A stretch of 36,029 bases of DNA from a virus (Duplodnaviria; Caudoviricetes), in the IMG/VR virus record IMGVR_UViG_3300009703_000050, positions 1 through 36,029 of that record, one strand, 5' to 3'. Both the position numbers and the translations under genes were made by a program. How positions within the stretch are numbered: the stretch's first letter is position 1; every line of letters starts with the position of its first letter. Below, piece after piece: positions 4,906-24,306 of this stretch. The notes below the pieces were generated by a model, which made no database searches, was not told where the DNA came from, and worked only from the letters and a program-made list of their open reading frames with translations.

Positions 4906-4971
4906 GCGCGATGCTTCAGGTAGCCTTTGCCCTTGTGGCGCACGGGTATGCAACTTTATTGCACACGGCAC

Positions 4972-5000
4972 TTGACAACGCCGACGAACTCCTGTAGAGT
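4972..5000 (+). promoter_or_regulatory. sigma70-type promoter, ATG at predicted start site
   Basis: TTGACA-17-TAGAGT-7 nt-ATG. Confidence 0.7.
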
Positions 5001-5007
5001 AGTACAC

Positions 5008-6270
5008 ATGATGAAAGACACACAAACAGAAGTGACGACCGAGAAGAAGAACCTCGCTGAGAAGCGCATCTCTGATGCACGCGCTCGTATGCTCGCAACG
5101 CAACAGTTCTTCGGGGTCATCGGCCTTGAGCTTAACCTCGTGCTGCGGACGGATTTGCCTTTCAAGACGATGGGTGTGGACGGCAAGAACCTGTTTTACG
5201 ACCCGGACTTTGTGTTGGGCGAGGCAATCGAGAACGTGCGCGGCGTTGTTCTGCACGAGGTGTTGCACGTGGCCCTCGACCATCTAGTGCGCGTCGAAGG
5301 TCGTGACTTCTCGCTCTGGAACCAAGCTGCCGATTACAGCATCAACAGCATCGTACTCGACCAGCCCGGCATGGGGCTGCCTGAGGGCGCACTGTACCGC
5401 CCCGAGTTCCGAGGCCTGACCGCCGAGGTCATTTACGACCGGCTGCTTCAGGAGCAGAAGGATGAGCAGGAGAAGAAAGATAACGAGGACAGCGACGACG
5501 ACAGTGAGAGCGGCGACGAGGGCGGGGGCGAAGGCAGTGACAGCCAAGCTCCCGGCCAAGGCGAAGCTCCGGGTGAAGGTAAGGGCGAGCCTGAATGGCG
5601 TGATTACCACGGCGAGGTCAAGGGTGACGACATCGACGAGATGCGCGCCAAGGTCGAGTCGGCTTTCGACAACCTCTCCAGCGAGGAGCAGGGCAAGGTG
5701 CCGGGCGACATCCGCAGGCTCATCGACAAGCGCCGGTCACAGGTGGACTGGAGGGAATACTTGCGCGCTACCACCATCGACGTAATGGCCCGTGAAGATT
5801 ACAGCTACAAGCGTCCGAGTCGTCGGTCGCACGGCGCTGGGTGTTACCTGCCGTCGCTCATCGGAGAAACGAACACCAAGCTCATGGTCATCGTTGACAC
5901 CAGCGCTAGCGTAGGCAAAGAAGACCTCGACCAGTTCTGCGCTGAGATTGATGCAGTGAAGGAATACGCCGACCGCACCGACGTGGTTAGCGTAGACACA
6001 CGCGTCCACTACCCTATCGACACCATCGGGAAGGGCGACAGCATAGCTGAGTCCGTGAAACCTCGTGGAGGGGGTGGTACGAGCTTTGACGCGCCTTTTG
6101 AAGACATCAACGCGGGCAAGCTGGAGTCGCCTGAGATGGCCATCTACCTGACTGACGGTTACTGTTCTTTCCCTAAGCAACAGCCTAGCTTCCCGGTGTT
6201 GTGGGTCGTGACTCGTAACGGCTGCGACCTTGCTAATATACCGTGGGGGATGAAGCTCAGGCTCGACTAG
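5008..6270 (+). CDS. HEXXH metallopeptidase-like plus VWA domain protein (DUF2201-like), partner of the AAA+ ATPase
   Basis: TMGVDG, LHEVLH, WNQAADYSIN, acidic linker, VDTSAS, GGGGTSF, YLTDG. Confidence 0.88.
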   Translation: MMKDTQTEVTTEKKNLAEKRISDARARMLATQQFFGVIGLELNLVLRTDLPFKTMGVDGKNLFYDPDFVLGEAIENVRGVVLHEVLHVALDHLVRVEGRDFSLWNQAADYSINSIVLDQPGMGLPEGALYRPEFRGLTAEVIYDRLLQEQKDEQEKKDNEDSDDDSESGDEGGGEGSDSQAPGQGEAPGEGKGEPEWRDYHGEVKGDDIDEMRAKVESAFDNLSSEEQGKVPGDIRRLIDKRRSQVDWREYLRATTIDVMAREDYSYKRPSRRSHGAGCYLPSLIGETNTKLMVIVDTSASVGKEDLDQFCAEIDAVKEYADRTDVVSVDTRVHYPIDTIGKGDSIAESVKPRGGGGTSFDAPFEDINAGKLESPEMAIYLTDGYCSFPKQQPSFPVLWVVTRNGCDLANIPWGMKLRLD

Positions 6271-18113: not shown

Positions 18114-21100
18114 ATGAGCTTGTGCGAGAACTGTGAGCTAACCTCTACCATAGCTGCGTGTAATAACGTGGGCGGTCGTGGGCCAGAGAAGCCTAAGCTG
18201 CTGGTCGTCACTGAGTTCGCTCCGCGTGGAGAGAGCGTGGCACCCAAGCGCGTGAAGATTATCCGTGACGAGCTGGTTGCGATGGGTGTTGACCTGTCGC
18301 AGGTGCGCTGGACAGGTGCGCTCCGCTGCCACTCAGCCATGCGACATATCGGTGAGTCTATCGAGGAGCAGAAGACTGCCATCGAAATCAACCGCATCGT
18401 TAAGGGCTGCCGCGAGCATCTCCTTGCTGAGATAAAGGAGTGCCAGCCCAAGGTCGTGCTGCTCGTGGGTAACATCGCCCTCAAGACTGCCTTCAATAGG
18501 AAGAGTGGGATGGACAAGTACAAGGGGAGCATCTTCCAAGAGGGTGACATCACTTACCTCGTGACCAAAGACCCGCTGCACATACCTAAGAAGAGCCGTG
18601 CCGAGGCCGAGTTTCTCGCCAGCCTGAAGAAGGTGAAGGCGTGCCTGACTGGTAAGCTGGAGGGTGACGGCAAGTACATGATGCCCAAGACCACAGCAGA
18701 GCTACAGGCTGCGCGTAAGATACTCATGTCACAGGACGTACTGACCTTCGACTTTGAGATTGCGATGTCTCTCAGCAAGGGAGTCAGAGACACCGACAAG
18801 CTGCTGGGCTGTGGCTTCTCGTGGGAAGCAGGCAAGGCCATCTACATACCCCTCGACCACAAGGACTCCCCCTTCAACGGGACACAGGAGGCTCACGACG
18901 TGGTGAAGGAGGTGCTGGCTGCCAAGGGCATCAAGAAGATAGCACACAACGGTTACTTCGACTGCCACGCAGCCAAGGTGTTCTACAAGGAGCTGCCGGC
19001 AAACTTCCACTTCGATACCATGCTGGCTCACCACCTGCTCGACCCGACCACGGGTACGCACGGGCTGAAGTACCTAGCTGGTATGCACACCGACCTCGGT
19101 GGATACGAGGAGAAGATTAGTGCCATCCTAGACAAGCTGCCCAAGGCCGAGCGGAACTACGGTGTCCTGCCTCTCGATATGATAGCTAAGTACTGCTGCA
19201 TCGACGCGGACGTGACCTTCAGGCTGTACGGCAGGTTCAAGTTTGAGCTTGAGGAGATGAACCTCACCGGGTTCTTTGAGAAGATAACGATGCCTACCAT
19301 CATGACGCTCATCGACATGCGGGTGCGTGGCTTCAACCTCGACCTCGGCAAGCTGGACATGCTCATCGACCTGTACGAGAAGGAGGTCGTGTCTACCCTG
19401 AAGGAGGTCATCGCCTGCCCCAAGGTGCAGGAGACTAACGCCGAGCTTAACGTGAACTCCCCCAAGCAGATAGCAAAGCTGCTGTTTGAGGTGTACAAGC
19501 TGCCTGTCCTCAAGAAGACAGCCAGTGGTGCGCCTGCTGCGGACATGGCTACGCTGCTGCGTGCTGCCAGTACCATCAAGGACGAGGGGGAGGTGTCTAC
19601 GTTCATCAACGCCTACCTCGCACACAAGAAGGCTAAGAAGACACTGGCGACCTACCTCATCAGCATGAGAGAGAAGGCACACAAGACAGAGGACGGCATC
19701 CGTATCTACACAGACTACCGACCACTGACAGAGACAGGTCGTCTGATGTGTGTGAAGGGAGATACGCTAGTCCAGACACGGAAAGGCCTAGTGGAGATGC
19801 AGGACGTTCGAGTGGGTGATGAGGTTGCCACCCATAAGGGAAGATATAGGAAGGTTTTGAAGGAAATCTTCAAAGGGTACGATACGATGGTAACGATAAC
19901 AATGGACAACGGTGAGTCACTCACCTGCACCCCCAGTCATAAACTACTACTAAAAGACGGCTCTTGGAAGACTGTCGAGGAGATTGAAAATGTCAGTATC
20001 GAAAACGTGGGTGAAGAACCCAGAGAATATACGGAAGACTTTGGAGTTGTACTTAGACATGGGCTTGGGGCTAACTCTAGCGAAGGTGGCAGAGGCGCTG
20101 GGGACATCATACCACAACGTCGGGGCAGTGGCCAAGGAGAATCTATCCCCGAAGCTACTAAAGGGCGTACAGGCCAGCAAGTACTCAGCTTCCAAAACAG
20201 GAAGCAAAAACCCAATGACAGCAAAGAGCGGACAGCAACATCACAACTGGAAGGGGGACTGCGACGACGGCTACGGATACAAGACGAGGAAGGTAGGACA
20301 GAGGAGGTACTTCGTACATCGGATAGTCTTTGCGGAACACGTATTGAAGATTCCAGTGGAACAACTATCGGAGACAGTACACGTACACCACATCGACGGC
20401 GACACGCTGAACAATCATCCAGACAACTTAGCGGCTGTAACCACCAAGGGGCACAAGGCTATCCACCACTTGCAGGACGTAACAACAAAGACAGTGTCAG
20501 AATTGAAAGCATCAGCGTTGCAGGAACTTACGGAGTCTATGACATCACAGTTGAAGAAGACCACTCTTACCTAGCGGCGGGTATTTACTCGCACAACTCT
20601 AGCTCGCCCAACCTACAGAACCTACCCGCTGACCACGACAAGAAGCACAAGGTCAAGGACATCTTCACCGCACCCAAGGGCTATCAGTTCATGGAGATGG
20701 ACTTCTCCCAGATTGAGCTGCGTAACCTAGCCAACACCACTCGTGACGAGCAGTTGGTGGGTGCCTACCTGAACGGGGAGGACTTGCACACCAAGACAGC
20801 GCAGCTCCTCTTTCAGCGGGACGAGGTGACATCGGGCGAGCGTAAGCTAGGCAAGACCATCAACTTTGCCTCAGTCTATGGCGCAGGGCCGTGGCGACTG
20901 GCCGAGACTATCACTACCGGGAACCTGCTTGACGGGCCGGAGACTCTCGCTATGGTCATGGACACGCTGGGCCTCGACGCGAAGCAGGCCAAGACTAGGA
21001 TTAGTCGCAACCTCAACGCAGCATTGGCTGACGTGGGGGAGGTGCTGCTTGACCGCTTCTTCTCCTCGTACCCGGCTGTGTCCTCGTGGCAGACCAAGAT

Positions 21101-21524
21101 TGAGTCGTATGTGGCCAAGCATGAACACTTACGCACACCCTTCGGACGCATCAGGTACATCGAGACACGCACCAAGCGAGGTGCCAAGTACACAGCCCAG
21201 TGGCAGAACATCGCACGCAACACGCCAATACAATCGGTGTCGAGTGACTGCCTGCTACTATCACTGGTGGCCTGTAACGATTTACTCAAGGCCAGAGGGG
21301 CTAAAACAAAGGTTGTTGGCACGGTACACGACTCCATCCTCTTCTACATCCATGAGGATGAGATGGATTTGCTGCCTATCATCAAGAAGGAGATGGAAAT
21401 TGCACCGACAAGATTCATGCCTGACTTCTTCGTCGTGCCTCTGGTCGCGGACATACAAATTGGCCCATCGTGGGGTAAAATAGTACCGCTTGAGCTAGAC
21501 GACACAGCAACATCTGTGCTATAA
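18114..21524 (+). CDS. polA: Family A DNA polymerase: UDG-like N-terminal domain, 3'-5' exonuclease, intein-containing
   Basis: Exo DFE, HNGYFD, YCCID; TGRL..SPNLQN; motif A DFSQIELR, B KTINFASVYG, C VHDS. Confidence 0.96.
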   Translation: MSLCENCELTSTIAACNNVGGRGPEKPKLLVVTEFAPRGESVAPKRVKIIRDELVAMGVDLSQVRWTGALRCHSAMRHIGESIEEQKTAIEINRIVKGCREHLLAEIKECQPKVVLLVGNIALKTAFNRKSGMDKYKGSIFQEGDITYLVTKDPLHIPKKSRAEAEFLASLKKVKACLTGKLEGDGKYMMPKTTAELQAARKILMSQDVLTFDFEIAMSLSKGVRDTDKLLGCGFSWEAGKAIYIPLDHKDSPFNGTQEAHDVVKEVLAAKGIKKIAHNGYFDCHAAKVFYKELPANFHFDTMLAHHLLDPTTGTHGLKYLAGMHTDLGGYEEKISAILDKLPKAERNYGVLPLDMIAKYCCIDADVTFRLYGRFKFELEEMNLTGFFEKITMPTIMTLIDMRVRGFNLDLGKLDMLIDLYEKEVVSTLKEVIACPKVQETNAELNVNSPKQIAKLLFEVYKLPVLKKTASGAPAADMATLLRAASTIKDEGEVSTFINAYLAHKKAKKTLATYLISMREKAHKTEDGIRIYTDYRPLTETGRLMCVKGDTLVQTRKGLVEMQDVRVGDEVATHKGRYRKVLKEIFKGYDTMVTITMDNGESLTCTPSHKLLLKDGSWKTVEEIENVSIENVGEEPREYTEDFGVVLRHGLGANSSEGGRGAGDIIPQRRGSGQGESIPEATKGRTGQQVLSFQNRKQKPNDSKERTATSQLEGGLRRRLRIQDEEGRTEEVLRTSDSLCGTRIEDSSGTTIGDSTRTPHRRRHAEQSSRQLSGCNHQGAQGYPPLAGRNNKDSVRIESISVAGTYGVYDITVEEDHSYLAAGIYSHNSSSPNLQNLPADHDKKHKVKDIFTAPKGYQFMEMDFSQIELRNLANTTRDEQLVGAYLNGEDLHTKTAQLLFQRDEVTSGERKLGKTINFASVYGAGPWRLAETITTGNLLDGPETLAMVMDTLGLDAKQAKTRISRNLNAALADVGEVLLDRFFSSYPAVSSWQTKIESYVAKHEHLRTPFGRIRYIETRTKRGAKYTAQWQNIARNTPIQSVSSDCLLLSLVACNDLLKARGAKTKVVGTVHDSILFYIHEDEMDLLPIIKKEMEIAPTRFMPDFFVVPLVADIQIGPSWGKIVPLELDDTATSVL
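19749..20597 (+). mobile_element. Intein in PolA (283 aa), no in-frame endonuclease
   Basis: Starts CVKGDTLV, block B CTPSHKLL, ends VYDITVEEDHSYLAAGIYSHN, +1 Ser; removal restores TGRLM-SSSPNLQN. Confidence 0.95.
19990..20574 (+). CDS. HTH/NUMOD-like plus HNH homing endonuclease overprinted in the +1 frame inside the intein (194 aa)
   Basis: GAGGAG 19977-19982, 7 nt, ATG; TLAKVAEALGTSYHNV HTH; KNPM...HHNWKG; HRIV...VHHIDGDTLNNHPDNL...H...H. Confidence 0.9.
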   Translation: MSVSKTWVKNPENIRKTLELYLDMGLGLTLAKVAEALGTSYHNVGAVAKENLSPKLLKGVQASKYSASKTGSKNPMTAKSGQQHHNWKGDCDDGYGYKTRKVGQRRYFVHRIVFAEHVLKIPVEQLSETVHVHHIDGDTLNNHPDNLAAVTTKGHKAIHHLQDVTTKTVSELKASALQELTESMTSQLKKTTLT

Positions 21525-21555: not shown

Positions 21556-24306
21556 ATGCCAAAAGAACTTACCGGCCTGTCGAAGGTCATACATGAAGAG
21601 CGTTATGCTCACGACAACGAGACGTGGGCGGACACCTGCAAGCGGGTCGCCGACTACGTTTCTATGGCCGAGAACGGAGACAAGGCCGAGTGGGCTGAGG
21701 CGTTTCGTGTGCTCATGGAAGACCAAGCATTCATTCCCGGCGGTCGCATCCTCGCTAACGCAGGCAGAGTAGGCGGGCAGTTATTGAATTGCTTCGTGCT
21801 ACCAGTCGAGGACAACCGCGAGTCGATAGGCGACCTCATCAAGGAGGTTCTCATCGTGTCAGGCACAGGTGGGGGCATTGGTATCTCCTTCAAGAACCTG
21901 CGCTACCGAGGCGCTAAGATTGTCCGCGCAGGAGGCACCAGCTCAGGCTCTGTCTCTTTCATGAACGTGGTCGATGCCGTGGCTGCTACCATCAAGACAG
22001 GAGGAGGCAGGCGTGCTGCGCTCATGCTCTCACTCCCAGTAGACCACCCAGACATCGAGGAGTTCTTGAAGCACAAGCTCGACCTCAACAACCTGAACAA
22101 CGCTAACGTCAGCGTCGAGATTAACAACGACTTCATCGACGCAGTGAAGCGCAACAAGGACTGGGACTTGGTGTGGGCAGGGCAGGTCGTCAAGACCGTG
22201 AAGGCTCGCAAGCTGTGGAACAAGGTGTGTAAGAACGCCGTCAAGTGTGGCGAGCCGGGCATCCTCAACCTTGAACTCATGGAAGAGAAGTCCAACAGCT
22301 ACTACTACGCTAAGATTCTAGCGACCAACCCGTGTGTAACAGGCGAAACTACTATCCTAACCGATAAGGGACATGTTCGTATCGACTCGGTAGTTGACCA
22401 GCGGGTTAACGTCTGGAACGGCAAAGAGTGGAGCAAGGTAACCCCTAGGGTGACCGGAGAAGACCAAGAGATTATCGACGTGGAGTTCAGCGATGGGTCG
22501 GGCTTGGCTTGTACTCCTTACCATAGCTTCCCTATCGTTAAAGGAGTAGACGCTCGTCATCCCAGAGTGACCAAGGTACAGGCCAAGGACTTGCAAATTG
22601 GCGATAAGATAGATAAGTGGGAGCTTCCTGTGATTACAGGCAATACTGAGCTTAGGGAAGCCTACTCTAAGGGCGCTTTCGCGGGGGATGGATATATGCG
22701 AAGAGGAGATACGCCTGTGATAGACCTGCATGGTGTCAAACGAGACCTCATGCCCTACTTAGACGTAAAGACGCACAATGAAGGGCCGAGCTGCAAAGCA
22801 CACAACAAGATTAATGTCACCTTGGATAGCCTCCGTAGAAAGGGAGGCATGACCGACTACTGCAAGACTTTTGTGCCGGACAACACCTACACAGTCCAGT
22901 CTAGGCTGGATTGGTTGGCAGGTTACCTCGACACAGATGGGACACAGCAGAACGGTGCGGCTAGTATGTCGTCAGTAAACCGTGAGTTCTTGCTGGAACT
23001 CAAGAAAATGCTGATGACCTTAGGGGTACAGAGTACCATTAGCCTTTCTCACCCGGCTATGGTTAGGGCCATGCCCGATGGGCGCGGAGGGATGAAGGAC
23101 TATAGAACACAGGCATGTTATCGTATTACTTTTGGTTCGGGATACGTTGCGCACCTACTTAACTTGGGCCTGACCTGTCACCGTTTGGACTTCTCGAAGG
23201 CTATCGGTAGGCGCGTGAGAGCCAACGCGGTACGTATTACCAAACTTACTCCGAGGACTAAGCGCGAAGCAAAAGTGTACTGTTTTAACGAACCAAAGAG
23301 ACATATAGGCACGTTTGGTTGCGTCTCAATAGGGAATTGCGGTGAACAACCTTTGCCTGCCTACAGTGCGTGTTGCTTGGGCAGCGTGAACATCAACAAC
23401 TTCGTAAAGAACGGACGCATCGAGGAGGCTCCCTTCAAGCGGGCCATCGCTACTGCCATCCGCTTCCTCGACGACGTGCTGACCGTCAACACCTACCCTC
23501 TGGATGCTATCAAGTCTACCGTGACTGCCGAAAGGCGTATCGGTCTGGGCCTGATGGGGATTCACTCTGCCATGTTGCAGATGGGTATCAAATACTCCAG
23601 CCGTGAGGGCTTGGAGTTCATCGAGTGGGTGTACAAGACCCTGCGTGACGAGTCCTACAAGGCTTCGTGCGCTCTTGCTGCCGAGAAGGGTGCCTTCGGT
23701 CTGTTTGAGGTCGAGGCGTTCCTTGACAGTGGCTTCGTTAAGGGGCTGCCCATCGGTGTGAAGCGTAAGATACGCGAGAGCGGTATGCGTAACGTGACTG
23801 TCAACACAGCGGCACCCACAGGCACGACTGCTATGCTCTGTGGTGTCAGCTCAGGCATCGAACCCATCTTCGCTCCTGTCTACAAGCGTACCTTCTTCTC
23901 CGACAAAGCGGACGACGGCGGGCGCAAGAGTGAGATAGTGGTGGACGTTGAGGTGCAGAACGCTCTGGAGAGTGGCAAGTCCTTCGATGAGTTGGAGCAT
24001 TTTGAGGGAGCCTACGACGTACCAGTGGAGCAGCACTTCAGGGTGCAGGAGACAGTACAACGCTGCCTCGACAGCGCCACATCTAAGACCATCAACGTAC
24101 CTAAAGGATTCGACTACCAAGAATTAGAGCGGCTAATGCTCAAGTACGCTAAGACCCTCAAGGGTACGACCGTGTACATGGCGGGCAGCCGAGCGCACGA
24201 ACCGCTCCAGCCTGTCGAGTTCACCGAGGCCAACCTGAAGAAGGCCATTCGCAAAGCAGAACGCGAGGCCCGAGAGGACTGCGCTGACGGCACCTGCGAA
24301 GTATGA
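21556..24306 (+). CDS. nrdJ: Ribonucleotide reductase, probably class II (B12-dependent), intein-containing
   Basis: PGGRIL, NCFV, GGGIG, TNP-[intein]-CGEQPL, CCLGS, APTGT, SSGIEP, C-terminal Cys pair; no ATP cone and no NrdB in the window. Confidence 0.88.
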   Translation: MPKELTGLSKVIHEERYAHDNETWADTCKRVADYVSMAENGDKAEWAEAFRVLMEDQAFIPGGRILANAGRVGGQLLNCFVLPVEDNRESIGDLIKEVLIVSGTGGGIGISFKNLRYRGAKIVRAGGTSSGSVSFMNVVDAVAATIKTGGGRRAALMLSLPVDHPDIEEFLKHKLDLNNLNNANVSVEINNDFIDAVKRNKDWDLVWAGQVVKTVKARKLWNKVCKNAVKCGEPGILNLELMEEKSNSYYYAKILATNPCVTGETTILTDKGHVRIDSVVDQRVNVWNGKEWSKVTPRVTGEDQEIIDVEFSDGSGLACTPYHSFPIVKGVDARHPRVTKVQAKDLQIGDKIDKWELPVITGNTELREAYSKGAFAGDGYMRRGDTPVIDLHGVKRDLMPYLDVKTHNEGPSCKAHNKINVTLDSLRRKGGMTDYCKTFVPDNTYTVQSRLDWLAGYLDTDGTQQNGAASMSSVNREFLLELKKMLMTLGVQSTISLSHPAMVRAMPDGRGGMKDYRTQACYRITFGSGYVAHLLNLGLTCHRLDFSKAIGRRVRANAVRITKLTPRTKREAKVYCFNEPKRHIGTFGCVSIGNCGEQPLPAYSACCLGSVNINNFVKNGRIEEAPFKRAIATAIRFLDDVLTVNTYPLDAIKSTVTAERRIGLGLMGIHSAMLQMGIKYSSREGLEFIEWVYKTLRDESYKASCALAAEKGAFGLFEVEAFLDSGFVKGLPIGVKRKIRESGMRNVTVNTAAPTGTTAMLCGVSSGIEPIFAPVYKRTFFSDKADDGGRKSEIVVDVEVQNALESGKSFDELEHFEGAYDVPVEQHFRVQETVQRCLDSATSKTINVPKGFDYQELERLMLKYAKTLKGTTVYMAGSRAHEPLQPVEFTEANLKKAIRKAEREAREDCADGTCEV
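22333..23337 (+). mobile_element. LAGLIDADG intein (335 aa) just before the RNR radical Cys
   Basis: Starts CVTGET, CTPYH, GAFAGDG and WLAGYLDTDG, ends VYCFNEP...SIGN, +1 Cys. Confidence 0.95.

Follow-up and report, generated by a model that had tools for sequence, protein, structure and literature searches.

The family A DNA polymerase gene (polA) of this phage carries an intein whose central part encodes, in the +1 frame, an HNH endonuclease gene with a start of its own. As judged from the sequence, the element is likely a mobile PolA intein, in which the polA-frame filler would be spliced out together with the intein, and a separately started +1 HNH nicking enzyme would copy the element into empty polA alleles. 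The HNH locus is real and under selection, and it is probably active. The window analyzed here is an entire linear virus record of 36,029 bases with a completeness estimate of 21%, and the two runs that contain most of it, X1 and X2, are both subsurface metagenomes; X1 may be its source. No RNA data set was among the runs listed as containing it. Its replication module comprises helicases, a primase, polA, a class II ribonucleotide reductase, SSB, a UvsX-like recombinase, and SbcCD-like genes. According to Pfam, the polA product consists of a UDG-like N-terminal domain, a 3'-5' exonuclease, and a polymerase domain; the UDG-like domain (window 18114-18590; Pfam UDG, E = 1.7e-05) is common to the relatives P0020-P0024. 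Elsewhere in the window, a 447-aa ORF (4927-6270) matches phrog_1314 (E = 5e-88), which is labelled HNH endonuclease, a putative assignment that we give as labelled.

Table 1 Features of the intein-bearing polA gene, in coordinates of the window
Feature	Positions	Strand (frame)	Basis or remark
polA, phage family A DNA polymerase precursor, 1136 aa including the intein	18114..21524	+	Single open frame; PF03167, PF01612, PF00476
Class-1 intein, 283 aa (849 bp), site TGRLM^SSSPN	19749..20597	+	Cys1, block B His, C-terminal His-Asn, Ser+1
N-terminal splicing region, about residues 1-80, polA frame	19749..19988	+	TIGR01445 on residues 1-67; 75 of 79 residues as in the P0021 mini-intein
Shine-Dalgarno (SD)-like GAGGAG, 7 nt before the HNH ATG	19977..19982	+	Codes for Glu-Glu in the polA frame; SD-like 4-mer in 14 of 18 loci
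Low-complexity linker, polA frame, about residues 81-246	19989..20486	+	Unconserved except for being stop-free
Overprinted HTH + HNH gene, 194 aa, homing-endonuclease-like, I-PfoP3I group	19990..20574	+ (+1 frame)	Pfam HNH_3
HNH catalytic motif (H133, H134, N142, N146, H155, H159)	20386..20466	+ (+1 frame)	All catalytic residues kept in the window copy
C-terminal splicing region, blocks F and G	20487..20597	+	TIGR01443; overlapped by the HNH tail to 20574
Three Ser codons TCT AGC TCG directly 3' of the intein	20598..20606	+	5-7 of 9 bases differ from close empty alleles

The splicing blocks all lie in the polA frame, as the initial annotation had read them, with block B (TCTPSH) at 19923-19940 and block F (VYDITV) at 20535-20552. 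Pfam Intein_splicing matches the window intein with E = 3.4e-12, and both TIGR01445 and TIGR01443 score over cut-off, while the insertion site was fixed by comparison with the empty allele P0020. These motifs, together with the position in an essential host gene, suggest that the intein would splice out of PolA. The middle of the intein has another character. Residues 81-246 consist to 46% of R/G/S/E and to 16% of large hydrophobic residues, and searches of this stretch in the polA frame with Pfam, PHROGs, and TIGRFAM-type profiles matched no nuclease family, in agreement with the earlier description of an R/G/S/E-rich, nuclease-free filler. A single-sequence fold of the intein gave a pLDDT of 34 throughout, a value too low to inform on the structure of the linker. 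The window intein does not have the canonical bifunctional layout, in which blocks B and F flank an in-frame endonuclease. An in-frame endonuclease does occur, as had been noted, in the intein of the class II ribonucleotide reductase (335 aa, window 22333-23337), which has a LAGLIDADG match in frame.

The nuclease is found in the +1 frame, where Pfam HNH_3 matches the ORF with E = 1.5e-10, above gathering, so that the proposed HNH gene with GAGGAG ahead of its ATG holds up. The ORF contains the motifs KNPM, HHNWKG, and HHIDGD-N-NL-H-H. Its endonuclease labels come solely from Pfam HNH_3 and PHROGs HNH, and none belongs to the published Endo VII-like, LAGLIDADG, or VSR-like types. The TAG stop codon lies 23 nt short of the intein end, which places the HNH tail within block F, where the initial annotation had put it. 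An AlphaFold2 model built on a 25-row alignment (mean pLDDT 86) has a helical N-terminal half, including three helices at the N terminus with pLDDT above 90, and a beta-beta-alpha core; it supports the predicted HTH at the N terminus, a region with no Pfam hit. With this model, Foldseek returned I-HmuI as the top match (E = 0.063), along with weak matches to HTH proteins and none at E <= 0.001, and I-HmuI was likewise the top hit of a sequence search of the PDB (E = 0.01); we treat both results as leads only. The prediction that gene callers would miss such a gene was borne out for this copy, as the exact HNH protein is missing from a collection of 15 billion proteins in which the polA of the window is present, and not for the family, since homologs have been called as genes in other genomes.

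The same arrangement recurs in a family of loci. Close HNH relatives, defined by a profile score above 100 bits plus L241, are present in 27 other loci among those fetched with the HNH and three GenBank records: 21 lie in the +1 frame within a PolA intein, five in intron-like breaks of polA, and one is free. In these 21 loci, which are related to one another and hence do not count as independent events, the intein site is identical and both frames are open, and the host polymerases are very divergent. The strict catalytic pattern is complete in 18 of the 21 HNH copies; the other three are L008 (Asn to Asp), L009 (His to Tyr), and L090, which is truncated with an internal deletion. L090 (2875-3309) has the appearance of a decaying allele, with a 220-aa intein, an HNH gene that is internally deleted and stopped ahead of its last histidines, and an open polA frame. 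In L163, L164, and L166, the N-terminal splicing region is shorter, and the HNH gene, for which no SD match was seen, starts at intein codon 70-71. L006 (1770-2788) belongs to the intein-type HNH group and is located outside any intein, with nine stops in the old host frame. Its HNH gene adjoins a polA-like fragment on the opposite strand and matches a Sphingobium protein (P0016); this locus is possibly a rearranged remnant. More widely, the HNH profile hits form 74 clusters at E <= 1e-30. Among GenBank phages, 42 records match the HNH and 15 match the intein N terminus only; four of the 42 were examined, and all four have a split or intron-bearing polA, so that no cultured phage with both a PolA intein and a +1 HNH was found among them. 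A search of viral contigs for close intein-bearing PolA relatives gave one distant match only.

This recurrence bears on whether the locus could be an ordinary in-frame HNH intein thrown out of frame by two compensating indels during assembly. Nothing was found that speaks for such an error, and it is hardly credible, because the X1 and X2 contigs span the intein without indels, the layout is repeated in the 21 other loci, and a tail that lies over block F cannot be in frame. A longer homolog with the HNH fused was not found among 7994 candidates, which is weak evidence, and the best 75 profile hits to the HNH are at most 275 aa long. In the homologs, the +1 frame is kept open, L090 being the one truncated copy.

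Selection on the two frames is clearly unequal. For the stop counts and selection analyses, L002 was left out because its HNH is identical to that of L001, and the truncated L090 was left out of the per-frame selection analysis and the HNH trees. Across HNH residues 2-160 of 20 sequences, every one of the 190 pairs is more alike in the HNH frame than in the polA frame (mean identity 0.44 versus 0.23); of 182 columns, 64 reach 70% conservation in the HNH frame and 14 in the polA frame. Differences by HNH codon position (0.45, 0.39, and 0.62) peak at the third position. The HNH-frame dN/dS ranges from 0.07 to 0.23 in the six of the ten closest pairs with measurable dS, the other four being saturated, and the polA-frame dN/dS of 1.5-3.7 in the ten closest pairs is the mirror effect expected of an overlap. 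Purifying selection on the +1 frame, as anticipated, is thus present in the middle of the intein; at its block F end, where the polA frame had been expected to prevail, both frames are equally conserved (0.38 versus 0.40).

What the polA frame does retain is freedom from stop codons. Across the HNH gene, all 21 intein loci have zero polA-frame stops, compared with means of 3.9-9.8 after synonymous-codon shuffling, and six of six non-intein HNH relatives have 9-28 stops in the other frame. For the window HNH, the shuffles gave a mean of 4.6 polA-frame stops, and zero stops arose in 0.25% of 2000 shuffles; the double open frame is not due to chance. T is found at 0 of the 43 third positions where it would create a polA-frame stop, compared with 16% elsewhere. 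Selection maintains the HNH protein, and the polA frame is merely kept stop-free. Since its stops have been purged while its sequence is unconserved, the filler must be a translated stretch in which openness counts and the actual sequence does not.

Several features at the 5' end of the HNH gene point to how it may be expressed. Wherever the start is visible, in 18 loci, the aligned codon is ATG or GTG. In 14 of these loci it is preceded, at a spacing of 5-10 nt, by at least an SD 4-mer (background 10%), and in 10 by an SD 5-mer (background 2.4%), although part of this enrichment may stem from the polA frame, as the SD overlaps intein motif codons (Glu-Glu, Gly-Glu, and Gly-Asp). A stop closes the +1 frame within 0-3 codons ahead of the HNH start in 10 of the 18 loci, and in L164 it stands directly before the ATG. 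A promoter scan of 19600-20700 found no sigma-70 site on the + strand; two overlapping matches on the minus strand (0.9 expected) were dismissed as chance. Because no + strand promoter was found, we infer that the HNH is translated off the polA mRNA. Sharing strand and mRNA with polA would also allow for a programmed +1 ribosomal frameshift out of the polA frame, which would yield a fusion of N-extein, intein N terminus, and HNH, and four of the 18 loci (L009, L163, L164, and L166) do have no 4-mer SD. However, a frameshift would not account for a start codon retained at the aligned position in each of the 18 loci, for the closure of the +1 frame just upstream, or for the intron-borne homologs, which, as free proteins, start close to the same residue. 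The start, the SD, and the upstream closure favor internal initiation, and frameshifting seems most improbable.

Comparison of polA alleles suggests that the intein has moved. P0020, the polymerase nearest to that of the window, lacks an intein, and its exteins match those of the window at 94% and 96% identity; the site is also empty in four more sequences of the P0020 cluster that extend across it. Overall, 117 of 120 PolA hits were scored as empty by a motif screen that misses at least two inteins (P0034 and P0044); these two, found in the polymerases of other phages, are unrelated mini-inteins that occupy the identical polA site. Contigs from five of six low-share runs (X3, X4, X6, X8, and X10) join across the intein site, and that of X5 falls short of it. 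P0021 shows the opposite relationship to that of P0020: its exteins are 47-48% identical to those of the window, and its splicing regions are 95% and 93% identical. The P0021 intein is a 130-aa mini form without the start and body of the HNH, and its junction is the same in P0021, P0293, and P0294. Loose contig ends in X1 and X2 read as P0021 flanks, and a short X2 contig carries the mini junction with 30 letters on one side, below the 31 used by the tool; DNA of the P0021 phage was absent from the viral contigs searched. In quick-method trees, as all trees here are, the window sequence clusters with P0020 by its exteins and with P0021 by its splicing domains, only loci that have both intein ends being used for these two trees. 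These patterns indicate recent lateral movement of the intein between phages that occur together in these samples. The mini form more likely arose by deletion, because the +1 HNH is old in the family. In the 9 nt directly 3' of the intein, the window departs strongly from close empty alleles (Table 1), compared with base changes of 2-5% elsewhere. This flank looks like a short co-converted tract; an alternative is escape by the empty alleles. The patchy distribution of empty, mini, and full alleles supports a mobile intein, in line with the original proposal that the whole element could be mobilized.

The mini form also raises the question of whether the window HNH is a relic in an intein that still splices and has lost homing. 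The close sister intein P0021 without an HNH and the decayed copies L090 and L009 fit such a loss. We nevertheless regard it as very unlikely for the window, whose copy retains the catalytic residues, the SD, and the start, and whose close relatives are empty, as would be expected after a recent arrival.

A characterized relative of the HNH is I-PfoP3I of Pf-WMP3, to which the window HNH is homologous over its full length (HHalign 99.8%, E = 4e-30, 142 columns; BLASTP 31%). I-PfoP3I is described in the accessible part of its report as a tested polA nickase that nicks the coding strand 4 nt upstream of a Pro^Asn intron site, with a recognition site mapped to -3 to +11 around Pro^Asn (PMC3428280). 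The intron site in Pf-WMP3 is 12 nt downstream of the window intein position, and the nick maps 8 nt downstream of the intein site, near the 9-nt flank change. The five relatives in polA breaks also sit at Pro^Asn, a few codons past the intein site, and the annotation of two of them joins the polA parts into one gene, in one case naming an intron explicitly. Rfam Intron_gpI gave weak, sub-gathering matches in L083 and L084 and none in the window locus L081 or in L082, L089, and L094. In a quick tree rooted at the midpoint, the intron-type HNH proteins separate from the intein-type ones (SH-aLRT 98). A loop present in five of seven intron-type proteins is kept by the intein copies L087 and L088 and occurs in none of the 18 other intein copies, which suggests that the HNH went from a group I intron to the intein. 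The initial annotation held that a free-standing HNH gene had invaded a mini-intein out of frame. The 21 loci, the per-frame selection, and the conserved start context support a separately started HNH gene within an intein whose polA frame is kept open. As its source, however, an HNH lineage that was encoded in introns and already aimed at PolA is more likely than an arbitrary free-standing HNH. The fullest version of this history, in which a lineage of Pro^Asn group I intron nickases entered an intein 12 nt away, retained its own start in the +1 frame, had the polA-frame stops purged, and now drives the intein between polymerases less than 50% identical, is one that we put forward tentatively, as a possibility that falls somewhat short of probable.

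Put together, the mechanism that we propose would run as follows. A polA-targeting HNH gene of the intron type would have entered a mini-intein, after which the polA-frame stops were lost. At present, the filler would leave PolA with the spliced intein, and the +1 HNH would be made from the internal SD and ATG on the polA mRNA. By homology to I-PfoP3I, the HNH would nick intein-less polA on its coding strand, some 8 nt past the intein site, and repair from the intein allele during co-infection would copy the whole 849-bp element. The choice of target is the one point at which a different account departs from this one. Because the intein, inserted 12 nt upstream, leaves the I-PfoP3I recognition sequence intact, the target and self-immunity of the window HNH cannot be read from I-PfoP3I: its specificity may have shifted, the changed flank may give immunity, or both alleles may be cut, as I-HmuI and I-HmuII cut intron-plus and intron-minus alleles alike (PMC3428280, in the portion available). 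In the last case, the HNH would act as a partly independent selfish gene, comparable to I-HmuI or to free-standing enzymes, nicking the polA of other phages with or without the intein (marker exclusion), and the intein, a hitchhiker, would be its harmless seat. Besides the retained recognition sequence and the precedent of I-HmuI and I-HmuII, the family member L006 outside any intein is consistent with such independence. Yet 21 of 27 close relatives hold to one intein site across very divergent polymerases, and the intein itself moved between 47%-identical polymerases. We therefore consider the selfish nicking of both alleles unlikely and prefer the homing of the intein as a unit.

In 59 of the 241 loci screened for HNH relatives, the HNH is out of frame or antisense in an intein-bearing gene, and in two it is in frame. 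Distant HNH ORFs in the +2 frame of intein-bearing genes account for 32 of the 241 loci, some of them duplicates, and include L015, L020, L024, L029, L043, L050-L058, L074, L105, L107, L115, L130, L135, L155, L160, and L185; the host gene of L015 looks like a large terminase. An antisense HNH-like ORF lies opposite an intein-bearing gene in four of 241 loci (L102, L120, L151, and L238), an antisense HNH not being among the types listed in the accessible text of Gosselin et al. (bioRxiv 10.1101/2025.01.02.630785).

How inteins gain homing endonucleases is an open question on which this family bears. In the published model, a separate nuclease gene enters a mini-intein and later slips into frame, and the PolA HNH family looks like a long-lived middle stage of that process. 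As I-PfoP3I already cuts the same stretch of polA, the idea of a pre-adapted nuclease becomes testable with the empty, full, and mini alleles; this three-allele set and a characterized relative that predicts the nick position are what the locus adds. The family also shows that annotation goes wrong for phage inteins whose linkers are long and featureless. Specialists will no longer be surprised by the layout as such. In the literature searched, which covered neither preprint supplements nor most subscription journals, we found no published family A polymerase intein with a +1 HNH and no link of one to I-PfoP3I, and the available text of PMC7468147 contains nothing on alternative frames.

Four known systems come close. 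Gosselin et al., in the text accessible to us, describe actinobacteriophage inteins with a frame-3 gene for an endonuclease VII-like enzyme, with antisense LAGLIDADG or VSR-like genes, and with in-frame HNH (bioRxiv 10.1101/2025.01.02.630785). Like the window intein, these keep the host frame open, have the endonuclease in another frame of the central region, and are patchily spread, and the same origin, invasion by a separate endonuclease gene, is proposed for them. However, the window has an HTH-HNH gene in frame 2 (+1) of a family A polymerase with its tail over block F, whereas the polymerase host named there is DNA polymerase III alpha, and 'PolA' appears 0 times in that text. The cyanobacterial dnaX intein of Phillips et al., which has a LAGLIDADG +2 ORF, is similar in its same-strand overlapping ORF with an SD, frame-specific dN/dS, disordered filler, and coexisting empty, mini, and full alleles, as far as the accessible part of that report describes it (bioRxiv 10.64898/2026.09.14.751524). 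It is cellular and uses a LAGLIDADG enzyme in a different frame, whereas the window has a phage gene, a probable nickase, and transfer between 47%-identical hosts. The insertion ShiLan in phage DNA methylases likewise carries its HNH out of frame while the host frame stays open across the insertion; unlike the window intein, it has no splicing domain, its HNH carries zinc fingers, and the frame is 3, going by the available text (Arsenault et al. 2025, PMC11855218). The I-PfoP3I-type intron nickases share full-length homology, a C-terminal HNH, and the same gene and conserved stretch (PMC3428280, accessible part), but they are borne by RNA introns and are not dual-coding, and no group I intron was found at L081 with Rfam. 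The general layout is thus published for other genes, and the PolA family described here is a variant of it with an HNH endonuclease.
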